64,000 bases of DNA, from IMG/VR virus record IMGVR_UViG_3300009678_001574; one strand, 5' to 3'. This document shows positions 11,481 through 39,507 of the stretch, piece by piece (positions within the stretch are counted from its first letter, which is position 1; the number at the start of each line of letters is the position of its first letter). The notes below the pieces were generated by a model. It searched no databases and was not told the DNA's origin. It was given only the letters and a program-made list of their open reading frames with translations. The DNA comes from a virus. The translations under genes and the position numbers were made by a program.

Positions 11481-11797
11481 TGGCTAACTTCGACGAAATA
11501 CTTACTAAAGGCAAGGGCAAAGTCAAAGGCTCTGGCGGAACTAAAACTAAAAAAGACCAATGGAAAGAACATATTAGTTTGCTCATAACCATTATGACCA
11601 AACTCAATGGTATGTATGGTGCCGATGACAAGCATCATTTTCTAGTAGAACAAGCAAAATGCGGGAAGTGCAACAAGGTAACGTATCTGATTGCTATCAG
11701 GGATATTGAAAACAATAAACAGGTAATCAGATTTCATAATTCTTCTTGGAAGGTGATTAGCAAAGACACCTATCACTGTGATGTGTGCAAGAAGTAA
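11480..11797 (+). CDS. Hypothetical zinc-ribbon protein
   Basis: CGKC and CDVC pairs. Confidence 0.5.
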   Translation: MANFDEILTKGKGKVKGSGGTKTKKDQWKEHISLLITIMTKLNGMYGADDKHHFLVEQAKCGKCNKVTYLIAIRDIENNKQVIRFHNSSWKVISKDTYHCDVCKK

Positions 11798-11807
11798 TGA
11801 GGTTAAA

Positions 11808-12905
11808 GTGAATACTGTATTGGTAGACTTACAGTTAGGCGATTGTGGGAAAGGAAAGATAGCAGATCATTTAATGGAAGAACATGACATATGCGTTAGA
11901 TACTCTGGTGGGCCTAACACCGGAACAACCGTATGGACGAATGGAATTAAATATAAATTACATCATCTCCCTGTTGGACTCTTACGAAACAAGCCGAGCT
12001 ATATAGCACAAACTTGTCTAGTGAATCCTGCCAAGTTGATGAAAGAAATAATTGAATTAAAAGAATTGGGCTTTGATGTGGATAAGAATTTGAAGATTTC
12101 TCCACACTGTCACGTAATTACACAAGAACATATAGAGCGTGATATAGCTAATGAAACGAGCGGCTTAAGTTCTGGCGGCGTTGGTTCGACAAAGCAAGGT
12201 ATATCACCTTGTTCCCAAGACAAATACGCACGCAAGGGAATTCGTTTAGTAGAGCACGGCGGCTTTGAAAAATACTTGGCCGATGTACCACTTGATTTGA
12301 ACCATGCCATCAAACGCGGTAAGAGTATTTTATTTCAAAGCTCACAAGGTACGATGTTGGATATAGACCATGGTAATTATCCGTTTGTTTCTACAACCTC
12401 TAATATTGCCGGTGCAGCAGCTATGGCATGTGGCATAGGCCCACAATATATAAATAAGGTTATTGGTGTGTTTAAGCCCTATCTAACTTATGTTGGTGTG
12501 GGTGAATTCCCAACTGAAATAGCTGATGAGCAAGTTAATGCAACAATAGCAGAACGAGGCTATGAGTATGGAACTACCACAGGCCGTCGGCGTCGTATCG
12601 GTTGGTTAGATTTACCAGCGCTTGCTTATGCCTGTATGATTAACGGAGTACAAGAATTGGCTGTTACCAAGTCTGATGTACTAGAAGATATGCCAGTTCA
12701 ATATAGTGATCGTTGTTTGTTAGAAAATGGCGCATCCATTTATCTGCCATTTGACCATAAATATAAGGCTTGTTTAAAGAATGCTGATAACGTTAGAGAC
12801 CTATTGTATATTGTTACGGAAGACCTCAAGCGTATATACGACTTGGGTATTAGATTAAAATATATTTCCACAGGTAAGAATAGGGAAGAGATGAGGATAC
12901 TATGA
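11808..12905 (+). CDS. purA: Adenylosuccinate synthetase (short form)
   Basis: QLGDCGKGK, R.SGGPNTG.T, G.GSTKQGI, QGTMLDIDHG.YPFV, YGTTTGR.RRIGWLD; GTG start with GAGG RBS. Confidence 0.92.
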   Translation: MNTVLVDLQLGDCGKGKIADHLMEEHDICVRYSGGPNTGTTVWTNGIKYKLHHLPVGLLRNKPSYIAQTCLVNPAKLMKEIIELKELGFDVDKNLKISPHCHVITQEHIERDIANETSGLSSGGVGSTKQGISPCSQDKYARKGIRLVEHGGFEKYLADVPLDLNHAIKRGKSILFQSSQGTMLDIDHGNYPFVSTTSNIAGAAAMACGIGPQYINKVIGVFKPYLTYVGVGEFPTEIADEQVNATIAERGYEYGTTTGRRRRIGWLDLPALAYACMINGVQELAVTKSDVLEDMPVQYSDRCLLENGASIYLPFDHKYKACLKNADNVRDLLYIVTEDLKRIYDLGIRLKYISTGKNREEMRIL

Positions 12906-19398: not shown

Positions 19399-19435
19399 AC
19401 ACTTATACAACTGCTATATAAGCAATTATCCACCG

Positions 19436-19460
19436 AGGCCCTTTTTAGGGCCTTTTTTAT
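19436..19460 (+). terminator. Intrinsic terminator closing the AT-rich region
   Basis: aggccc-ttttta-gggcct followed by ttttt. Confidence 0.75.
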
Positions 19461-19504
19461 TTAAATATACCTATAAACCTGCGGTGGCGGTGGGTCTGCA
19501 AAGT

Positions 19505-19730
19505 TTGCATAGTGCGCAATCCGGAATCGCTGGCCTGTATAACCTTTTTGCATATCCCGCAACTTTTGCATACAACGCAGCGGAATGCGGTAGGAAAAGA
19601 TTGCATACCTCGCAAACATTGCACAATCGCCACGAATTGCGGACCCGGAAAAGATTGCATACGTCGCAAAAATTGCATACCGCGCAGGCCAAAACGGCGC
19701 CGAACCACGCAAAAATTGCATACGTCGCAA
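19505..19730. repeat. Array 1 of TTGC-N7-GCAA palindromes
   Basis: Perfect copies at 19505, 19548, 19601, 19655, 19716; imperfect at 19566, 19619, 19673. Confidence 0.9.
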
Positions 19731-19741
19731 GTTTTTTTTTC

Positions 19742-19771
19742 TTGACAACGCACCGCGTCATGCGGCAAAAT
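19742..19771 (+). promoter_or_regulatory. Sigma70-like promoter P1 with palindrome in spacer
   Basis: TTGACA-ACGCACCGCGTCATGCGG(18)-CAAAAT. Confidence 0.6.
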
Positions 19772-19867
19772 GGTCGCACAATCGAGGCAAGGCTAGCGGC
19801 ATGGTGCCGCTAATGCCTCGGGAAAGGTATCTCGCAAAATTTAACGCACCGCGTCGGTCGAATTTGC

Positions 19868-19897
19868 TTGCTAACGCGGTGCGGCATGTGAGATACT
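19868..19897 (+). promoter_or_regulatory. Sigma70-like promoter P2 with palindrome in spacer
   Basis: TTGCTA-ACGCGGTGCGGCATGTGA(18)-GATACT; another copy of the palindrome 30 bp upstream (19844). Confidence 0.5.
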
Positions 19898-19952
19898 TGG
19901 AAAATCAACAACGGGCAAGGCATGACGCCAGGCCCACGAAAGGGAAAGCACA

Positions 19953-20228
19953 ATGAACACCGTCCAGACCAGCACCGTCCCCGCCATCGTCGAGACCCCG
20001 GAGCAGGAGCTCACCCGTCTCCGCGCCGAGAATGAGGCGCTCAAGGCTGTCAAGGCCCAGGGTATCAAGGGCATGAAGGTGAGCGAGAAGGGCGCCTTGT
20101 CCATCTACGGCCTCGGTCGCTTCCCGGTCACGCTGTACCGTAGCCAGTGGGAGGCCCTGCTCGCCAAGGCGGAGGACATCAAGGCCTTCATCGAGGCGAA
20201 CGCGGCGAAGCTCAAAGCCAAGGAGTAG
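19953..20228 (+). CDS. Early protein A; coiled coil plus PC4-like beta module
   Basis: GC-rich codons; KVSEKGALSIYGLGRFPVTLY..QW; fold assignment is inference. Confidence 0.75.
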   Translation: MNTVQTSTVPAIVETPEQELTRLRAENEALKAVKAQGIKGMKVSEKGALSIYGLGRFPVTLYRSQWEALLAKAEDIKAFIEANAAKLKAKE

Positions 20229-20232
20229 CTCA

Positions 20233-20303
20233 GGCCGAAACCTAGGGCGCGCTAGTACAGGCGCCCGATGGTCTACGGGTATGGTGCCCGTACTGAGGAG
20301 GCC
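20233..20303 (+). ncRNA. Hammerhead ribozyme (type II, open stem II); predicted cut after 20273
   Basis: GGCC-GAAAC ... GUC / UACGGG-7nt-CCCGUA (stem I) / CUGAGGA-GGCC; complete CUGANGA, GAAA and GUC core. Confidence 0.9.
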
Positions 20304-20306
20304 GTC

Positions 20307-20546
20307 ATGGAAGGTTTGCACGTCGAGTTGCGCCGTCTGCGCATGAAGCCAGCGCCCATGCCCGTGAGTCCGCGTGAGGCTGTCGAGCCCACGCCTACGC
20401 CTGCCGCCGTCAAGGTGGTCAAGGTGTTCAACTCGGGTAGCGCCGAGGAGCGGAAGTTTGCCGAGAACATGGCGGTTATCGCCACGGCCTACCGCAACGG
20501 GCTCATCACGGAAGCCAAGGCCCAGGAGCTCGCGGCCAGACTGTAG
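20307..20546 (+). CDS. Early protein B
   Basis: GC-rich codons; RBS GAGGAG lies in the hammerhead core. Confidence 0.6.
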   Translation: MEGLHVELRRLRMKPAPMPVSPREAVEPTPTPAAVKVVKVFNSGSAEERKFAENMAVIATAYRNGLITEAKAQELAARL

Positions 20547-20580
20547 GACACACATACACACACACCTATGCGTGTGTGTC

Positions 20581-20645
20581 GGGATGCAAGCTATCACCTC
20601 CGCGTGGTGCATCCTGGGCAGGCATGGTGCCTGGCTAACGATGGC
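20581..20645 (+). ncRNA. HDV-like ribozyme 1; predicted cut between 20580 and 20581
   Basis: P1 GGGAUGC/GCAUCCU (G1.U wobble), P2 GCUAUC/GAUGGC, P3 ACC/GGU, L3 UCCGCGU, P1.1 CC/GG, P4 CAGGCA/UGCCUG, J4/2 GCUAAC with catalytic C20635. Confidence 0.9.
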
Positions 20646-20659
20646 AGAAAGTCACGGTC

Positions 20660-20857
20660 ATGTGTCGTGCGGACATTCGACGCCGCGTGGTAGCGGTGTT
20701 GGCCAACGGGTCTATGGGTCCGGGCGCCTTGCAAGATACGCTCTTCGACTTGGAGAGCCGCGAGGTGGCACGGGAATTGCGCGAGCTTGTGAAGCGCGCC
20801 GCCGTGAAACACAACGGCAAGGTCGGTCGCGGCAGTAGGTATGCCCGCGCCGTGTAG
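20660..20857 (+). CDS. Early protein C, small winged-helix-like
   Basis: VVAVLANG.M....L...L...VARELRELVK..AV...G..R...Y; fold is inference. Confidence 0.6.
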   Translation: MCRADIRRRVVAVLANGSMGPGALQDTLFDLESREVARELRELVKRAAVKHNGKVGRGSRYARAV

Positions 20858-20868
20858 GACATACGCCG

Positions 20869-21096
20869 TTGCACACTACGCAACGGTAGGACGGTAAGCA
20901 ATCTGCCTCCGCGTGGCACCGTCCGGGTAACGCTAAAGATTGCACAGTAGGCAAAGGTTGCATAGTACGCAACTCTTGCACACTGACACACACATACACA
21001 TGCACCTAGTTGCATAGTACGCAATCGTTGCGTACCCAGGACGAAGTGGCGTGCTCGCAGAAATTGCGTAGCCCGCAAACTTTGCATACCTGGAAA
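20869..21096. repeat. Array 2 of TTGC-N7-GCAA palindromes
   Basis: Perfect copies at 20869, 20940, 20958, 21010, 21064; imperfect or half sites at 20976, 21028, 21082. Confidence 0.9.
20889..20943 (+). ncRNA. HDV-like ribozyme 2 (minimal P4); predicted cut between 20888 and 20889
   Basis: P1 GGACGGU/ACCGUCC, P2 GCAAUCU/AGAUUGC, P3 GCC/GGC, L3 UCCGCGU, P1.1 CC/GG, J4/2 GCUAA with C20933. Confidence 0.85.
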
Positions 21097-21105
21097 GTGT
21101 GTGTG

Positions 21106-21180
21106 ACGCGGTGCAGCAAAATTTTGACGCGGTGCGTCGGTCGATTTTTGTTGACAACGCGGTGCGTCAAGCGGCAAAAT
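21106..21180 (+). promoter_or_regulatory. Sigma70-like promoter P3 with three ACGC-N3-GCG operator-like sites
   Basis: TTGACA(21151)-ACGCGGTGCGTCAAGCGG(18)-CAAAAT; sites at 21106, 21127 and 21157. Confidence 0.65.
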
Positions 21181-21233
21181 CGGTTTCACAATCGGCGCAA
21201 CGGAAACGGCGCCGCCAAGGGAAAGGACACGGC

Positions 21234-21437
21234 ATGACACTGACACCGGCTTATGGTCGGGACTACAAGAGCAAGGCAGAGGTCGAGGCAGCCTGGGACG
21301 GCGGTAAGGATTTCCAGATTGCCAGCGTGGGGCCGTGGATGGGCTCCTACGTGACCAAGCGGGAGCTGGCGGGTAACGAGAAGGAAGTAAGCATCCGTTA
21401 CGCCAAGCTCTCGAAGGTGGTAGTCCTGAAGGTGTGA
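21234..21437 (+). CDS. Early protein D
   Basis: MTLTPAYGRDYKSKAEV...GKDF; GAAAGGA RBS; GC-rich codons. Confidence 0.75.
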   Translation: MTLTPAYGRDYKSKAEVEAAWDGGKDFQIASVGPWMGSYVTKRELAGNEKEVSIRYAKLSKVVVLKV

Positions 21438-21462
21438 ACGCAGGGCCGGCTAGTACAGCGGC

Positions 21463-21549
21463 CCTAGTCTAAAGCAGCCGGCAGTAGTTAGGCCGCCAGT
21501 CCAAAGCCTGGGAAAGCTCCTAACGGAGTTCAATGCTGATGGGACCTAG
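21463..21549 (+). ncRNA. Twister ribozyme 1; predicted cut 21470/21471
   Basis: U^AA-AGC-A-GC, P3 CGGC/GCCG, P4 CCAG/CUGG, L4 UCCAAAGC, P5, then GCU-GA-UGGG; P2 AGC/GCU and T2 UCCA/UGGG covary relative to other copies. Confidence 0.85.
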
Positions 21550-22155
21550 TAGTGAGGCTTAGTGAGTAGGTAAGGGCGTAGGTAGTTACTGCCACGTTCG
21601 AGACTCAGGCGAAAGTCAGCCAGGTCGAAGGCGTAGCATATACCGACGATAACCTCCAAGGGGCTAAGTAAGCGAACGGCGGTGTTGGCAGCGTGAGCCG
21701 TAATCATGCTGTAGTCTGGTAAGCGGGACTTTAACTCGGCTAGGTGGTGACTCTCACTCGTGTTGGTAGCCACGTTACGGTTGCCCGGTGACTAGGACTC
21801 GCATGGGAATCAGCCCTGCCTAGACAACTTCACAGAGCTTCGGCTCTTGGATTCTATCAGCTTGCGCTTCTGGTAAGGCATATAGCTTTACTCGAAGGCG
21901 TGGTTAGTGGGCTGATAGTCTTACGCTCTCGCAGTTAAAGAGAGCACGCACATGACCACACTCCTCGTTAGGCTTAGATTATGCTAAGCCACGAAAAACT
22001 CGCTTGGTGAGTGGGCCTATTTGGCTGACACCACAAGCCTGCGAGCGGAGTAGTGGTGGCGTGTTTTCGCCAAGCCTAACGAGCGCTTTAGGGGCCGCGC
22101 AGTTCAACCGCGCAATGGTCCCAGAGTTGTGGGTTACCTTGGTGCAAGAAAACCC
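21546..22155 (+). ncRNA. Candidate large structured ncRNA between twisters 1 and 2
   Basis: No convincing long ORF; long-range helices 21574-82/21920-28, 21854-61/21911-18, 21964-75/22072-83; UUCG hairpin 21834-47. Confidence 0.55.
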
Positions 22156-22220
22156 TCGTAATGCGGCAAGCGTATGCTTACGGTCACAAGCCCGTGTAAA
22201 CGCAGAGTGAGAAAGACGAG
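22155..22220 (+). ncRNA. Twister ribozyme 2; predicted cut 22159/22160
   Basis: U^AAUGCGGC, P3 AAGC/GCUU, P4 ACGG/CCGU, L4 UCACAAGC, GCA-GA-GUGA (T2 UCAC/GUGA). Confidence 0.92.
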
Positions 22221-22222
22221 TC

Positions 22223-22435
22223 ATGGATTACTCGTATCTGAAGCATTTGTCCGATGCTCAGTTGCGTACACTCAAGGTCCGGTACGCAATGGCAAAGGGC
22301 AACAGTTGGGAACACAAGCTCTTTTGCGCCGTGGATAGAGTGCTTACCGACCGCGAAGGCGTAACGCACTTCAAGACCGGGCGCATGGGAGACTGCCTGC
22401 ACATGGACCCACTCATGAACCCGAAAGGAATCTGA
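22223..22435 (+). CDS. Early protein E
   Basis: 70-aa ORF directly after twister 2. Confidence 0.6.
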   Translation: MDYSYLKHLSDAQLRTLKVRYAMAKGNSWEHKLFCAVDRVLTDREGVTHFKTGRMGDCLHMDPLMNPKGI

Positions 22436-22438
22436 CCG

Positions 22439-22882
22439 ATGAGCACACAGGAACCCAAAGACAAACCCGGAGTCGTCAACGGCTCCTTCGTCCGCAAAGA
22501 CTTCTACCTCTCACCGCCCGTCAAGGGAGCGCCGGTGGAAGCGTGGGAAGCCTGGCAGAAAGCGGACGACTTGCTTGCCGCCAACGCCAAGCGGAAGCAC
22601 ACCAAGAGCCTCAAGCACGAAGAGGTGCCTGAGTTCCTCCAGCCCAAGGTGCTTAGCAAGGTTGGCGGCGTCTACCGGCAGTCGGCGATGGTGGGCTTCA
22701 TCGGGGACGGAGATACCGCCCGAGTGGAAGCGGCCGTGGATGCCGAGCAGGGCAAGGTGCTGGCGCTCAACTCCTTCCGTCATGGTGGGCGTGGGCAGCA
22801 GACCGCTAGTCGCTCTGGTTCGGCCAAGCGTGCAGCTCGACGGGCAGCGAAGGAAGCCCGCCGCAAGAATACTCGGCACTAA
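22439..22882 (+). CDS. Early protein F (basic C-terminal tail)
   Basis: GC-rich codon usage. Confidence 0.7.
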   Translation: MSTQEPKDKPGVVNGSFVRKDFYLSPPVKGAPVEAWEAWQKADDLLAANAKRKHTKSLKHEEVPEFLQPKVLSKVGGVYRQSAMVGFIGDGDTARVEAAVDAEQGKVLALNSFRHGGRGQQTASRSGSAKRAARRAAKEARRKNTRH

Positions 22883-22901
22883 CACACAAGGGCGCTCACC
22901 C

Positions 22902-22970
22902 GCCCGCTAATGCAGCCTGGAGCAATCCCGCTCTAGCCAGTCACAAGCCTGGATAAATGCAGAGTGGCAT
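22902..22970 (+). ncRNA. Twister ribozyme 3; predicted cut 22908/22909
   Basis: U^AAUGCAGC, P3 CUGGAGC/GCUCUAG, P4 CCAG/CUGG, L4 UCACAAGC, GCA-GA-GUGG. Confidence 0.92.
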
Positions 22971-23040
22971 GTAGGTGGTAGGCACACATATACACACACA
23001 CCTACATACACATACAGTGTGCCAAGAAAGGGTTAAGTAC

Positions 23041-23328
23041 ATGACTGCTACCGAATTTCTCAAGAGCAAGAACGTTCCCTTCGATGGCTTGGATGCGGGC
23101 CAGTGCCGCACCATCGCCAAGGCCTACGGCTGGGCTGCTCCGAAGGCGGGCGTCAGCGTGGTGAGCTACACGCCGACCCAGAGCAAGAAGGGTCCGGGCC
23201 TCTACCTCAAGGTGGAGATCGAGGGAGCGCGTGAGGGCATGTTCCGCCTCTGCGACGGCAACGAGCTCACCCCGGCGGCCCGTGAGGTCATCGCCACCAT
23301 CGGCAACGACTGCGCCGACCTGCTGTAA
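23041..23328 (+). CDS. Early protein G
   Basis: ATG at 23041; GC-rich codons. Confidence 0.7.
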   Translation: MTATEFLKSKNVPFDGLDAGQCRTIAKAYGWAAPKAGVSVVSYTPTQSKKGPGLYLKVEIEGAREGMFRLCDGNELTPAAREVIATIGNDCADLL

Positions 23329-23356
23329 GACAAAGGCACCTGGGCAAGTGTAGAAA

Positions 23357-23420
23357 CTGCCCTGTTAATGCGGCCGGGATAGCCCGCAGGTCACAAGCCC
23401 TGGTAAACGCAGAGTGGCAC
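23357..23420 (+). ncRNA. Twister ribozyme 4; predicted cut 23366/23367
   Basis: U^AAUGCGGC, P3 CGGG/CCCG, P4 CAGG/CCUG, L4 UCACAAGC, GCA-GA-GUGG. Confidence 0.92.
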
Positions 23421-23438
23421 CTCAAACCGGGAGTGAGC

Positions 23439-23789
23439 ATGGGAAGCAGCAACCACAAAGGCATGGACACGTACAACCGCATCATCACCGACGCGCGAGC
23501 CACTGGCAAGCCTATCGGTCCGCAGTTCCACAAGTTCGACTTCCAGCGCAAGATATGGGAGAAGATGAACCTCACCCAGCCGGAAGCGAAGGTGCTCACC
23601 CAGACCCGTACCGCCCAAGCCGTCGTGACCAAAGACCAGACCCGAGAGGCCATCAAGGCCAAGCTCACGGTCAAGGTCACAGCGCCACAGCCTCAGTCCC
23701 TCCGCGAGAAGTACCAGGCTGAGCAACTCAAGAAAATCGCGGACGGCTACAAGGTCGAAGAAGGCATCAAGTACGTCAGCAAAGAGTAG
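23439..23789 (+). CDS. Early protein H
   Basis: GGAG RBS; GC-rich codons. Confidence 0.7.
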   Translation: MGSSNHKGMDTYNRIITDARATGKPIGPQFHKFDFQRKIWEKMNLTQPEAKVLTQTRTAQAVVTKDQTREAIKAKLTVKVTAPQPQSLREKYQAEQLKKIADGYKVEEGIKYVSKE

Positions 23790-23975
23790 TCCCACCCACA
23801 CGGAAGGAAAGGACATGCTGCGTAAAATTTAGCGCCAGTGGCTAAGGCGCGGTATAAGTGCCCACCTACTCCCTTGCGCCTGGACTTGGGAATCAGTAGT
23901 TAAAGCAGGCTGGATACACGGGAGCTACTCATGCTCTGCTCGTGACCGTGTATCGAGATATTGTAGGTAGAGCAA

Positions 23976-24038
23976 TGTTGTTAATGCCACCTGCATAGTG
24001 CAGCCGGTTCCAAGTCCGGAGAAGGCAGAGGAACAACA
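23976..24038 (+). ncRNA. Twister ribozyme 5; predicted cut 23982/23983
   Basis: P1 UGUUG/CAACA, U^AA-UGCC-AC, P3 CUGCA/UGCAG, P4 CCGG/CCGG, L4 UUCCAAGU; T1 AC/GU and T2 UUCC/GGAA covary. Confidence 0.92.
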
Positions 24039-24051
24039 CAAGGAGAAGCCA

Positions 24052-24213
24052 ATGCTCAAGCACAGCCTCGGTGACAAGCTCCGCCCGTTCATCCGTGAAA
24101 CCGTCAAGGCCAACGTGGAGAAGGCCAACCCGCATCTCACCAGCAACCCCAAGCTCCTCGACAACGTGACCCGCTCCATCATCACCAAGGGCCTCGCTCC
24201 TCTGTACCTGTAG
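24052..24213 (+). CDS. Early protein I (53 aa)
   Basis: AGGAG RBS right after twister 5; GC-rich codons. Confidence 0.7.
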   Translation: MLKHSLGDKLRPFIRETVKANVEKANPHLTSNPKLLDNVTRSIITKGLAPLYL

Positions 24214-24248
24214 CTCTCCCGCCCTCTATTGGACTCAGAGGCATGTGA

Positions 24249-24323
24249 GTCCTTAATGCGGCTAGGCACGGTCAAAGCCTAGGAGTCCCAAGCCTCCACA
24301 AACGCAGAGGGATACGAAAGGAC
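24249..24323 (+). ncRNA. Twister ribozyme 6; predicted cut 24254/24255
   Basis: U^AAUGCGGC, P3 UAGGC/GCCUA, P4 GGAG/CUCC, L4 UCCCAAGC, GCA-GA-GGGA. Confidence 0.92.
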
Positions 24324-24429
24324 GTGTATGTATCATAAGTAAGCGCCTAGAAAACTAGTAAGGGCGCAACGACAGAAATACTTACCTAGCACACTCACGT
24401 ATACCTAGGCAATGTGCGTGAGTGTGTGA

Positions 24430-24488
24430 CAGTGTAATGCGGCTATGAGTGGTCCCAAGCCCACCTGAGAAACGCAGAGGGAATCACA
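24430..24488 (+). ncRNA. Twister ribozyme 7 (no P3); predicted cut 24435/24436
   Basis: U^AAUGCGGC, P4 GUGG/CCAC, L4 UCCCAAGC, GCA-GA-GGGA. Confidence 0.9.
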
Positions 24489-24502
24489 ACAAAGGAGAAA
24501 GT

Positions 24503-24724
24503 ATGCTCAAGGTCATTGGTGCGATCACGTTGGTCGGTGGCTTGGCTTTCGGTGCGGCCTACTTCGGCGGGTACATCGACGGCAAGGCAGAGGTTCAGGT
24601 CACGGAGCAGGGTCGCAAGGCTGCTTCGGACACTCTTCGTAGCGCGCAGCAGGGCATCAGCAACGGGCTGAACCGTGCGGCTGATGCGGTCCACAGTGCC
24701 GAGGTTCCCAGCACCCAGCGGTAA
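24503..24724 (+). CDS. Early protein J, N-terminal membrane anchor
   Basis: AAAGGAG RBS; MLKVIGAITLVGGLAFGAAYFGG. Confidence 0.75.
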   Translation: MLKVIGAITLVGGLAFGAAYFGGYIDGKAEVQVTEQGRKAASDTLRSAQQGISNGLNRAADAVHSAEVPSTQR

Positions 24725-24914
24725 GTCGTAGGTTACATAGCTAATCATCCGTCGCCGAAAGGGAAAGGGAAAGGGAATAGTACACAAGCGCCAAGTTAAA
24801 GACGCTCTAAGGCGTAAGCCTACTTGAGCACACTAACAGTAACACGGCGCATCCTTTGAACGAGTAGGAACAGGTCGTTGATTAGCGTTTGATTAAAAGG
24901 CGGGTTAAATGTCC

Positions 24915-24995
24915 TGCCTCAATGCAGCTAGATGGATGCCCTATCTGTCTAACGGTCCCAAGCCCGTAAAGCGCAACGCAAATGCAGAGGGTACA
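24915..24995 (+). ncRNA. Twister ribozyme 8; predicted cut 24920/24921 (C^A)
   Basis: C^AAUGCAGC, P3, P4 ACGG/CCGU, L4 UCCCAAGC, small P5 GCG/CGC, GCA-GA-GGG. Confidence 0.85.
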
Positions 24996-25051
24996 TCCTG
25001 GCGAGCAATGGTATGGTTGGTATGGACAGGACCAAAGCCCCAACTGAGAAC

Positions 25052-25120
25052 GCAGTAGGTAGGAAACAAGGCGAGCGGCACGCAAGGTAAGTCCTGCTCC
25101 GCCTACCTACTGCTTTTTTC
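25052..25120 (+). terminator. Terminator closing the ribozyme-rich operon
   Basis: gcagtaggtagg / cctacctactgc 12-bp stem followed by tttttt. Confidence 0.75.
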
Positions 25121-25280
25121 GCTGAAGGCCCGGATATTCTCGGTAGTATGTCTGGTTTTTTATAACAGACATTATTACAGACGATATCTTATAGGCATTG
25201 GTGTGCCTAAATAAAGCCGGTGGGTAGAATATGCACTACCAACTTTTTTAGAAACGCTGTGTAAGCATAAGGAGGTAGGT

Positions 25281-26381
25281 ATGAAGGACACAATCGTTGT
25301 TCAGTTCAAGCCCATCACGACCTACTGCTTCCATATGCGTTTGAACGATTTTCTAGAGGCTGTGCAGAACGGCAGCTTCATAGACGATGACGGACACGGC
25401 TATTTGGCTACTGAAAGCCAAGAATCGTCTGTGCGTGTCAATCCGTCTGATGTAGCTACTACGCTTCTCGAAAACCCTTCCTACTTCGGTTGGGCCACAC
25501 ACGTAGCTTGGTTTAATAAGTAAGGCCCATCCGACTTGGATACGGTGCCTACTCACAGGACCATGGAGGTAGGTATGTCGTGTATCTGCAAGCCCAACGA
25601 CCCGTGTGACTATCACCTTGCTACGTGCATCGTGTGTAGTCCGCGCTGTGTAGGTCATCCGAATAGCGGTCCTGGCTTGCGTGAGCGGCTTTCTCAGTAC
25701 GAAGTTCAATTTGTCTCGCATCGTGGTAATATCGCGGTGGCAAAGAGTTTCGTGGGCTATGACAAAGCCAAGCAAGACAAGGTGAATAATCCAGCTCTGC
25801 CTTTCAACGTAGTGGAGCTGGTCACGCACGGTTCTGTCCGCGCTTCGTTGGTCTGGCGAAACGGTCGGTGGTGCTGATGGATACCTGTTGCATGAGTGAC
25901 TGCCCAAGCCCAAAGCACGCTGACTCATTGCGTGGGTATTGCGCGGAACACCACCTTGCCCACCAGCAGACGTTGCATAACGAATATTTCTCGCTTCCTG
26001 CGTTGCTAGCCGAGCGTAAGCATAAGGCCGAGCAAGGCAACTGGTATCCGGCCAATGGTGGTACGGAAACGCCCTTTCACACACGCAATCGACGCAGACT
26101 GCTGTATTGTTGGCAACCTAGCACTGGCCGACACGCCTACCTAGACTTGGACACGGACTTGATACTGTCCGACTCCGAGGCTCAGATAGCGTTGGGGACG
26201 TAGCATGGACCAAGACCTACCAGAGATAATTACTGTCGATGGCTTGCGTAGTCCATGTGGAACTATCGAGTACTGGGGCCAAGCTACTAGACAACCAGAT
26301 GGCAAATACGTCTGCTACGCTAATGTGGGCGGAATGCTAGCTTTGGTTGAGGTCAGAATCACCACGGAGACTGTTGTGTAA
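25281..26381 (+). CDS. Four small hypothetical ORFs (25281-25523, ~25575-25877, 25877-26203, 26205-26381)
   Basis: RBS-led, coupled ORFs; third contains WYPANGGTE.PF..R..RRLLYCWQP.TG.HAYLD. Confidence 0.6.
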
Positions 26382-39441: not shown

Positions 39442-39507
39442 TGCTTAAACTCACCGCATACATGGTGTATGCGCCAGTTCCAAGTCTGGGCAAAGAGCGA
39501 GGAAGCG
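39442..39507 (+). ncRNA. Twister ribozyme 9; predicted cut 39446/39447
   Basis: U^AA-ACUC-AC, 8-bp P3 CGCAUACA/UGUAUGCG, P4 CCAG/CUGG, L4 UUCCAAGU, GAGC-GA-GGAA; one A.C mismatch in P2. Confidence 0.8.

Follow-up and report, generated by a model that had tools for sequence, protein, structure and literature searches.

We analysed a 64,000-nt stretch of DNA from the IMG/VR virus record IMGVR_UViG_3300009678_001574 (the window, to which all positions refer), which is part of a large phage. Between 19.7 and 25.1 kb the window carries ten small open reading frames (ORFs A–J) in one direction, together with 11 motifs of three classes of self-cleaving ribozyme: hammerhead, hepatitis delta virus (HDV)-like and twister. 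All 11 motifs were found on the coding strand, in intergenic sites and co-oriented with the genes, and they occupy nearly every gene boundary. Metagenomic contigs used for comparison are designated by L-numbers. The features of this operon are as follows (ORF lengths in amino acids, aa):

19742..19771 (+): promoter-like site P1, TTGACA-18-CAAAAT, 10/12 matches, identical to the module at 21151
19953..20228 (+): ORF A, 91 aa, from a very large, uncharacterised family of ~80-aa proteins
20233..20303 (+): type II hammerhead ribozyme, predicted cut 3′ of 20273; Rfam match and core conservation
20307..20546 (+): ORF B, 79 aa; L114 homolog 76% identical, other genes at this place in L121 and L124
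20581..20645 (+): HDV-like ribozyme 1 (HDV-1) with a P4 hairpin, predicted cut 3′ of 20580; Rfam match and covariation
20660..20857 (+): ORF C, 65 aa; unrelated genes at its place in relatives
20889..20943 (+): HDV-like ribozyme 2 (HDV-2) with a minimal P4, predicted cut 3′ of 20888; covariation of helices P1 and P2 in L114, L121 and L124
21124-21140: terminator-like hairpin directly 5′ of promoter-like site P3
21151..21180 (+): promoter-like site P3, TTGACA-18-CAAAAT, same as the site at 19742
21234..21437 (+): ORF D, 67 aa
21466..21546 (+): twister T1 with a P5-type insertion, predicted cut 3′ of 21470
21471..22159 (+): 689-nt ORF-free unit, consisting of T1 and ~610 nt of conserved, apparently structured RNA
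22155..22213 (+): twister T2, predicted cut 3′ of 22159; a different element, motif X (described below), at its place in L114, L115 and L124
22223..22882 (+): ORFs E (70 aa, 22223-22435) and F (147 aa, 22439-22882), the sole dicistronic unit
22904..22970 (+): twister T3, predicted cut 3′ of 22908
23041..23328 (+): ORF G, 95 aa
23362..23420 (+): twister T4, predicted cut 3′ of 23366
23439..23789 (+): ORF H, 116 aa
23978..24036 (+): twister T5, predicted cut 3′ of 23982
24052..24213 (+): ORF I, 53 aa; between F and G in L121 and L124
24250..24315 (+): twister T6, predicted cut 3′ of 24254
24255..24435 (+): 181-nt unit without a real ORF, consisting of T6 and 115 nt; shared by L114 and L118 but not by L115
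24431..24485 (+): twister T7, without P3, predicted cut 3′ of 24435
24503..24724 (+): ORF J, 73 aa, with a hydrophobic N-terminus
24916..24995 (+): twister T8, with C at N-1 and an insertion in the 3′ junction, predicted cut 3′ of 24920
25051..25111 (+): long hairpin (-31 kcal/mol, z -3.1) with a U run 3′ of it

Cut sites are given as the nucleotide 5′ of the scissile bond and were derived from our own motif decomposition, with regular expressions used for the twisters. They agree to the nucleotide with those proposed in an earlier note on this DNA, which had described 11 ribozymes of three classes and the same gene order, including the 689-nt and 181-nt units free of ORFs; its map proved correct, and all 11 elements are on the + strand. 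Each of the ORFs A–J is preceded by a Shine-Dalgarno-like sequence, and their GC content at third codon positions ranges from 0.69 to 0.92. None of them belongs to a family in Pfam or PHROGs, and none has a paralog elsewhere in the window.

At the Rfam gathering thresholds the whole window yielded two tRNAs and no ribozyme. We then used a permissive search below these cut-offs, applied to 19400-25500 and then to all 64 kb. Eight full-length matches to the twister-P1 model (RF03160) were obtained on the + strand of the operon, starting at 21466, 22155, 22904, 23362, 23978, 24250, 24431 and 24916, with scores of 37.9-59.2 bits (E 1e-5 to 8e-12) that do not reach the gathering cut-off of 67.2. 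Thus the check by Rfam models that the earlier note had proposed gave significant twister matches, yet below the cut-off. The HDV model matched at 20579-20648 (30.3 bits) and 20887-20964 (34.4 bits) with E of 0.03-0.2, below the RF00094 gathering cut-off of 50 bits. For the type II hammerhead, the match at 20233-20310 scored 24 bits (E 0.17; gathering cut-off 37 bits), and its counterpart in L124 scored 25.5 bits. Extension to the whole window added one further twister, at 39442-39507, and no other ribozyme in 64 kb. A covariance model built from these twisters returned the identical nine copies and no scattered weak matches. Because cores and covariation are kept across lineages, as described below, the low Rfam scores are an effect of the model thresholds and not of doubtful motifs; annotation at gathering thresholds overlooks all these elements.

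In all nine twisters of the window helix P2 and both pseudoknots were intact. The first pseudoknot (Pk1), which joins a loop to a 3′ segment, occurs as CCC/GGG and CAC/GUG (three copies each), UCC/GGA (two) and CCA/UGG (one), and the second (Pk2), which joins the bases following P2 to the P4 loop, as GC/GC in seven copies and AC/GU in two. We aligned 34 copies from the window and its relatives, with the 3′ partners slid by 1-3 columns as a control. Standard pairs filled 92.1% of the twister pair cells vs. 29-42% in the slid control; P2, P3 and P4 were 97-100% paired, Pk1 98% and Pk2 100%, and double-sided changes were observed in 19 of the 21 pairs. Together with both pseudoknots, the copies have the P1-P2-(P3)-P4 layout and the N^AA cleavage site in the P1/P2 internal loop, as expected of twisters.

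The hammerhead reads, in order, GGCC-GAAA-stem III-GUC^-stem I-CUGAGGA-GGCC; only stem II is open and the other two are closed, which is the type II arrangement. It was found in five loci of four lineages (the relatives being L114, L121 and L124), with GGCC, GAAA, GUC and CUGA-N-GA invariant, whereas the free N position takes all four bases. Stem I, 7 bp long, has been rebuilt four times (UACGGGU/GCCCGUA, CGCAGGU/GCCUGCG, CUACGGU/GCCGUAG and CGCUGGU/GCCAGCG), and stem III is distinct in each lineage; stem II is just 4 bp, GGCC/GGCC. Fast cleavage by hammerheads requires tertiary interaction of stems I and II, by loop-loop contact or a pseudoknot. In the window the core GAGGAGG (20296-20309) also serves as the ribosome-binding site of ORF B. 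This overlap is not conserved, since in L114, L121 and L124 a separate spacer follows the hammerhead and precedes the start codon of the next gene (in L114, 1119-1142, with an AAGGAG-like Shine-Dalgarno sequence). We also observed that the stem III hairpin (20244-20266) and the hairpin before T1 (21451-21473) have the same loop, GCUAGUACAG, on different GC-rich stems. In both cases the gene that ends there (A or D) is the first one downstream of a promoter-like site. The shared loop may be a recognition element.

The HDV-like ribozymes were compared in nine copies from four lineages. All nine have G1, which in eight forms a G.U wobble; P1 and P2 are 6-7 bp each, and P3 is ACC/GGU or GCC/GGC. 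The L3 loop reads UCC[G/A]CG[U/C], a GG after P1 is available to pair with its CC as P1.1, and GCUAA in J4/2 is invariant. Compensatory changes were seen in P1, P2 and P4 across relatives, and the copies show both the double pseudoknot and the combination of G1 with the catalytic C that mark this class. In HDV-1 of the window P1 is 7 bp, P2 6 bp, P3 ACC/GGU and L3 UCCGCGU. Compensatory base changes in 4-5 diverged metagenomic relatives of like layout back all three classes. We conclude that the 11 elements of the operon are genuine twister, HDV-like and hammerhead folds, for which self-cleavage is predicted.

Close homologs of ORFs H and A were detected on short metagenomic contigs. Contigs L114-L122 and L124 carry the same operon, with 42-96% protein identity and ribozymes at the same boundaries (the layout being shared by L114, L115, L117-L122 and L124), so the conserved synteny that the earlier note had suggested looking for was found. 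Samples with such relatives include JGI 3300064746, 3300029893 and 3300011397. Outside these, a tblastn search with every ORF of the window in 113 IMG/VR loci that bear twisters gave no relative, and a peptide-word search with ORF F in IMG/VR gave no match. No match to the operon was present among 50,697 phage records searched by megablast, and no sequenced phage is close. Contig L123, from an unrelated phage, has an ORF A homolog and no ribozymes, and the ribozyme array is thus not tied to the ORF A family. That family has at least 7995 matches, with no Pfam family and no solved relative; homologs 65-70% identical to ORF A occur in metagenome-assembled genomes of soil bacteria (Steroidobacteraceae, Bryobacteraceae), and other phages also have members.

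Since co-oriented ribozyme folds stand at nearly every boundary and the layout is kept in relatives, the most economical reading appears to be a protein-free dicing of the transcript, as the earlier note had proposed; the ribozymes would presumably cut in vivo. The region 19.7-25.1 kb would form one or two co-directional transcription units, with a self-cleaving ribozyme before every gene or gene pair. During RNA synthesis each ribozyme would fold and cut at or near its own 5′ edge, giving about 12 pieces. The upstream piece would end a few nucleotides past a hairpin, in a 2′,3′-cyclic phosphate, and the downstream piece would start with a 5′-OH on a compact ribozyme fold, 10-20 nt before a ribosome-binding site. 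Each cistron and the two non-coding RNAs would in this way become separate molecules, their stability and translation uncoupled from those of their neighbours. We regard such self-processing, by which a polycistronic transcript would yield insulated and probably stabilised units of one or two genes, as the best reading of the locus and on balance as a probable one. T7 early RNase III processing and RiboJ-type insulators likewise combine site-specific cuts between cistrons with hairpin-protected 3′ ends and defined 5′ ends. By functional analogy, the cuts predicted here would uncouple neighbouring genes; unlike in T7 RNase III processing, no protein nuclease would be needed, and the ends would be 5′-OH and 2′,3′-cyclic phosphate.

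The positions of the ribozymes relative to genes and hairpins are consistent with this scheme. In the units of E, H, I and J, 10-20 nt separate the 3′ end of the ribozyme from the start codon. A hairpin within the last 40 nt, ending 1-5 nt before the cut, was found at 10 of the 12 cut sites vs. 41% of background windows of the same region, with a mean minimum free energy (MFE) of -11.1 vs. -8.5 kcal/mol (permutation P 0.007). Structured at the 5′ end and closed by a hairpin at the 3′ end, the pieces would probably be insulated, stabilised RNAs. The stabilisation suggested in the earlier note is thereby modestly supported, because the pieces begin with a compact ribozyme fold and hairpins precede 10 of the 12 cuts; the other part of that argument, protection by the 5′-OH, applies only in RNase E-type decay. 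Beside the ribozymes, CA-rich tracts of the ACACACAUACACACAC type pair with GU-rich tracts to form adjoining hairpins (20548-20579, 20985-21005, 22985-23035), and tracts of this type also precede the HDV-like cuts in L114, L121 and L124.

How the transcript would begin and end is less clear-cut. Of the promoters put forward in the earlier note, we picked up two identical TTGACA-18-CAAAAT sites (19742 and 21151) and not the others, and the number of promoter-like sites in the region is not above that in shuffled sequences. Its description of the operon as early and transcribed by the host RNA polymerase was overstated, its basis being solely these consensus-like promoters; early timing and use of the host polymerase are at most inferred from them. 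Given the terminator-like hairpin at 21124-21140 before the second promoter-like site, the region may consist of two transcription units. The terminator proposed at 25.1 kb is, in the window, a strong hairpin with a U run (25051-25111) and likely the end of the transcription unit in this phage. The hairpin is kept with covariation in L114 and L115, but both are without the U run.

Several observations weigh against self-processing with stabilisation. Every motif scores under its Rfam gathering cut-off, and P1 of the twisters is weak, with 64% paired in the 34-copy alignment; a weak P1 is acceptable in twisters. The enrichment of pre-cut hairpins is modest in a region that is GC-rich and easily folded, and the hairpin before the hammerhead cut is part of the ribozyme itself. 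The hairpin at 21124-21140 could divide the region into two units. Finally, a 5′-OH can provoke decay by RNase J1; as it protects only in RNase E-type decay and triggers decay with RNase J1, the sign of the effect depends on the host.

Comparison of the relatives showed that the units between ribozymes have been exchanged. Unrelated genes take the place of gene C, and the replaced segment coincides with the interval from one HDV-like core to the other: the nucleotide alignment with L114 stops at window position 20609 and starts again at 20886. Gene I, which follows H in the window, is found after F and before G in L121 and L124. Genes B and E are exchanged in some lineages, a pair of twisters separates F from G in L118, and L115 is without the 181-nt unit. 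Because units were swapped and moved among relatives, our results suggest that the ribozyme-led unit is also a unit of gene exchange, as a second role or at least as a consequence. These rearrangements, together with the presence of the same twister sub-type on more than 113 unrelated viral contigs, could also be taken to mean that the ribozymes chiefly mark or promote modular exchange, either as shufflable cassettes of ribozyme and gene in which the cores act as patches of homology, or as semi-selfish units, with any effect on expression secondary. We consider this rather unlikely, as cores and pseudoknots are kept by compensatory change, which points to selection on the RNA fold and not merely on DNA homology, and as the twister copies have diversified within one operon, which would hinder homologous exchange. 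Moreover, exchange is compatible with the processing model and not exclusive of it.

Cleavage might, in turn, act as a timer that destroys the transcripts, with the 5′-OH feeding decay of the RNase J1 type and the products being made only briefly. The glmS ribozyme offers a precedent, as the 5′-OH end it leaves triggers decay in hosts with RNase J1 (cited in PMC6765202), and transient expression is plausible for small, accessory-type ORFans such as these. Yet the conserved hairpins before the cuts and the structured 5′ ends suggest protection rather than exposure, constitutive fast ribozymes before every gene would be a costly limit on expression, and the idea depends on the RNases of the host. 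We judge a timer to be unlikely; cutting would more probably stabilise or insulate the pieces than destroy them.

The two non-coding units deserve separate attention. The ~610-nt stretch between T1 and T2 (21547-22154) is ORF-free and conserved, and RNAalifold with five sequences of the 689-nt region gave 167 consensus pairs, 35 of them with compensatory double changes. A permissive scan found no Rfam family match for the ~610 nt, and 21547-22154 is possibly a new large structured phage RNA. The 181-nt unit contains, at 24316-24345, a GAAAGGA Shine-Dalgarno-like tract followed by a 4-codon mini-ORF, which was also seen in L114 (5445-5475). This mini-ORF stays open despite codon differences, reading MYHK in the window and MNPK in L114.

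Ribozyme-generated ends are substrates of RtcB. One could propose that the main purpose of the array is the release, perhaps with RtcB-type circularisation, of the 689-nt and 181-nt RNAs, the cuts in mRNA being a by-product: both units have twisters on either side and no credible ORF, and the 689-nt unit is conserved with compensatory changes in several helices. We find this very improbable. Nine other cuts border ordinary genes, the 181-nt unit is absent from L115, and a search for circular or spliced products of clustered hammerheads in other loci found none (Perreault et al. 2011, PMC3088659). Nor is the circularisation considered in the earlier note supported, as the consensus fold of the 689-nt RNA neither pairs its two ends nor juxtaposes them, and no unassigned ORF of the size of RtcB was found in the 64-kb window, where the three ORFs of at least 330 aa taken as real all have assigned functions. 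A host ligase is possible. A 326-aa ORF on the minus strand was judged spurious. As for chance matches or inactive, decayed relics, the sub-threshold scores of all motifs and the E values of just 0.03-0.2 for the HDV-like and hammerhead matches would allow them, but twister E values reach down to 1e-11, exactly nine twisters and no scattered weak matches occur in 64 kb, and conserved positions with compensatory change in helices and both pseudoknots across lineages contradict this explanation, which we dismiss as highly implausible.

At the place of T2 three relatives have instead a pseudoknotted element, motif X, with the strand order P1 - P2 - A-GCC-UUGACGU-GGC - P1′ - CU...CNAAU - P2′, which is HDV-like. 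It was located as follows:

L114:3147-3214; L115:410-478; L124:2339-2410: motif X at the place of T2
L331, L288, L323, L306, L315, L296, L143, L181 (about 2610-2690), L252, L262: motif X on further contigs
L258, L280, L328 (two copies), L343, L281, L311, L254: motif X on further contigs

Between L114 and L124, helices P1 and P2 of motif X show three compensatory double changes. Its invariant 14-mer core occurs on many unrelated phage contigs with a 7-bp P1 that covaries freely, and a perfect P1 was present in 30 of 223 core matches vs. 5.8 +/- 2.3 with permuted partners. Like HDV-like ribozymes, motif X has a GCC/GGC P3, a 7-nt L3 with U1 and G6, and C-N-A-A before the 3′ strand of P2; unlike them, its first P1 pair is C-G, and the usual P1.1 is lacking. 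There was no match to motif X in Rfam, and it was not found in the twister-seeded IMG/VR sample. Folded alone it gave no MFE signal (z +1.27), which is expected for a pseudoknot. We propose motif X as a candidate self-cleaving ribozyme variant or class.

Some copies of motif X lie directly 5′ of a ribosome-binding site, and others ~340 nt upstream of strong matches to GOLLD RNA (L143:199-594, minus strand, 238 bits; L181:2973-3342, plus strand, 226 bits). The Rfam model of GOLLD perhaps covers just its 3′ part, and motif X may lie near the GOLLD 5′ end, marking or processing it. As a caveat, a TTGACA-17-CATAAT promoter-like site overlaps P1 of motif X in the GOLLD-linked copies. Motif X also bears on a wider version of the self-processing model, in which the ribozyme-led units would be units of both expression and evolution. 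Each ribozyme with its gene or non-coding RNA would then be an autonomous module that could be swapped, moved or duplicated, and the leader ribozymes, including motif X as a new ribozyme variant or class, would be interchangeable. We offer this extension tentatively, as a possibility that the present sequences raise.

The novelty claim of the earlier note was overstated, as ribozymes that flank single prophage genes and cut polycistronic RNAs of ~2 kb were published in 2011. In that work clustered hammerheads were found in prophages on either side of single genes or of short blocks of genes, native polycistronic ~2-kb RNAs were shown to be cut in vitro and, for a triple arrangement, also in E. 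coli, and processing of long phage transcripts was proposed (Perreault et al. 2011, PMC3088659). The present operon resembles those loci in that several ribozymes, with cutting predicted here, are co-oriented with small phage genes and flank single genes or short blocks. It differs in number and kind, with 11 ribozymes of three classes, mostly twisters, in 5.2 kb as opposed to two or three hammerheads per locus, and also in its two non-coding units and in the conservation, unit shuffling and pre-cut hairpins documented here. According to later reviews, ribozymes tend to occur close to one another and to phage genes, their function being still elusive (PMC6765202), and ribozyme-rich phage gene neighbourhoods were described by Weinberg et al. 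2015, as summarised in PMC6765202 and PMC4604425. With the type-P1 twisters (RF03160; Roth et al. 2014) our copies share the fold, the pseudoknots, the cleavage site and the habit of adjoining other ribozymes and phage genes; a difference is that all of ours fall under the gathering cut-off.

To gauge density we took a sample of 100 unrelated IMG/VR loci, each picked for at least one twister of the same sub-type and together covering 797 kb. It contained 133 twisters, with a maximum of three per locus, whereas the operon has eight in 3.5 kb plus three ribozymes of two other classes. Theta ribozymes, which are minimal HDV-like ribozymes of gut phages, act in tRNA maturation from their position at tRNA 3′ ends (Kienbeck et al. 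2024, PMC10879173). The elements described here are similar in having an HDV-like double pseudoknot in a tailed-phage genome and, in HDV-2, a minimal P4; unlike theta ribozymes, the two bracket a protein-coding gene within an mRNA operon. The arrangement has thus been known in concept since 2011, and this operon is an exceptionally dense and well-conserved example of it. New are the density, the mix of classes, the two ribozyme-bounded non-coding RNAs, the shuffling of units, and motif X in place of one twister. Thousands of hammerhead, twister and related ribozymes are known in bacteria and phages, and their biological role is still described as elusive (PMC6765202). This operon family, with 10-11 ribozymes of three classes in ~5 kb and natural variants that differ in their presence, class and position, forms a compact test system with natural controls for asking whether self-cleavage insulates, stabilises or destroys phage mRNAs. 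It also lets one test whether ribozyme-bounded non-coding RNAs are functional and whether ribozymes act as joints for cassette exchange.

Further features around the operon and elsewhere in the window are listed below.

19435..19454 (+): intrinsic terminator-like hairpin and T run, ending an AT-rich module upstream; kept in L114
19505..19740 (no strand assigned): repeat array 1, TTGC-N7-GCAA type, 5′ of the first promoter-like site, read from the sequence; array common to L114 and L124
20940..21096 (no strand assigned): repeat array 2, TTGC-N7-GCAA type, read from the sequence
39442..39507 (+): twister T9, the ninth, far from the operon and with a + strand gene on either side, predicted cut 3′ of 39446

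The spacers of both promoter-like sites contain the palindrome ACGCGGTGCGT. Together with the TTGC-N7-GCAA-type arrays, these palindromes are likely regulator binding sites, and they are kept in L114 and L124. At 19400-19950 the GC content steps from ~0.39 upstream to 0.55-0.64 in the operon, and it is ~0.50 beyond. An assembly chimera was ruled out as the source of this step, because L114 and L119 span the same junction.

Genes upstream of the operon encode a thymidylate synthase, a thymidylate kinase, an amidase and a PurZ-like adenylosuccinate synthetase, and a 723-aa ATPase is encoded far downstream. The PurZ-like gene (11778-12905) matches the PHROG family of adenylosuccinate synthetases of the 2-aminoadenine (Z-base) pathway with E 1.6e-73, and the phage genome may therefore be Z-substituted. 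Twister T9 has a 7-bp hairpin on its 5′ side, and the gene after it is locally GC-richer.

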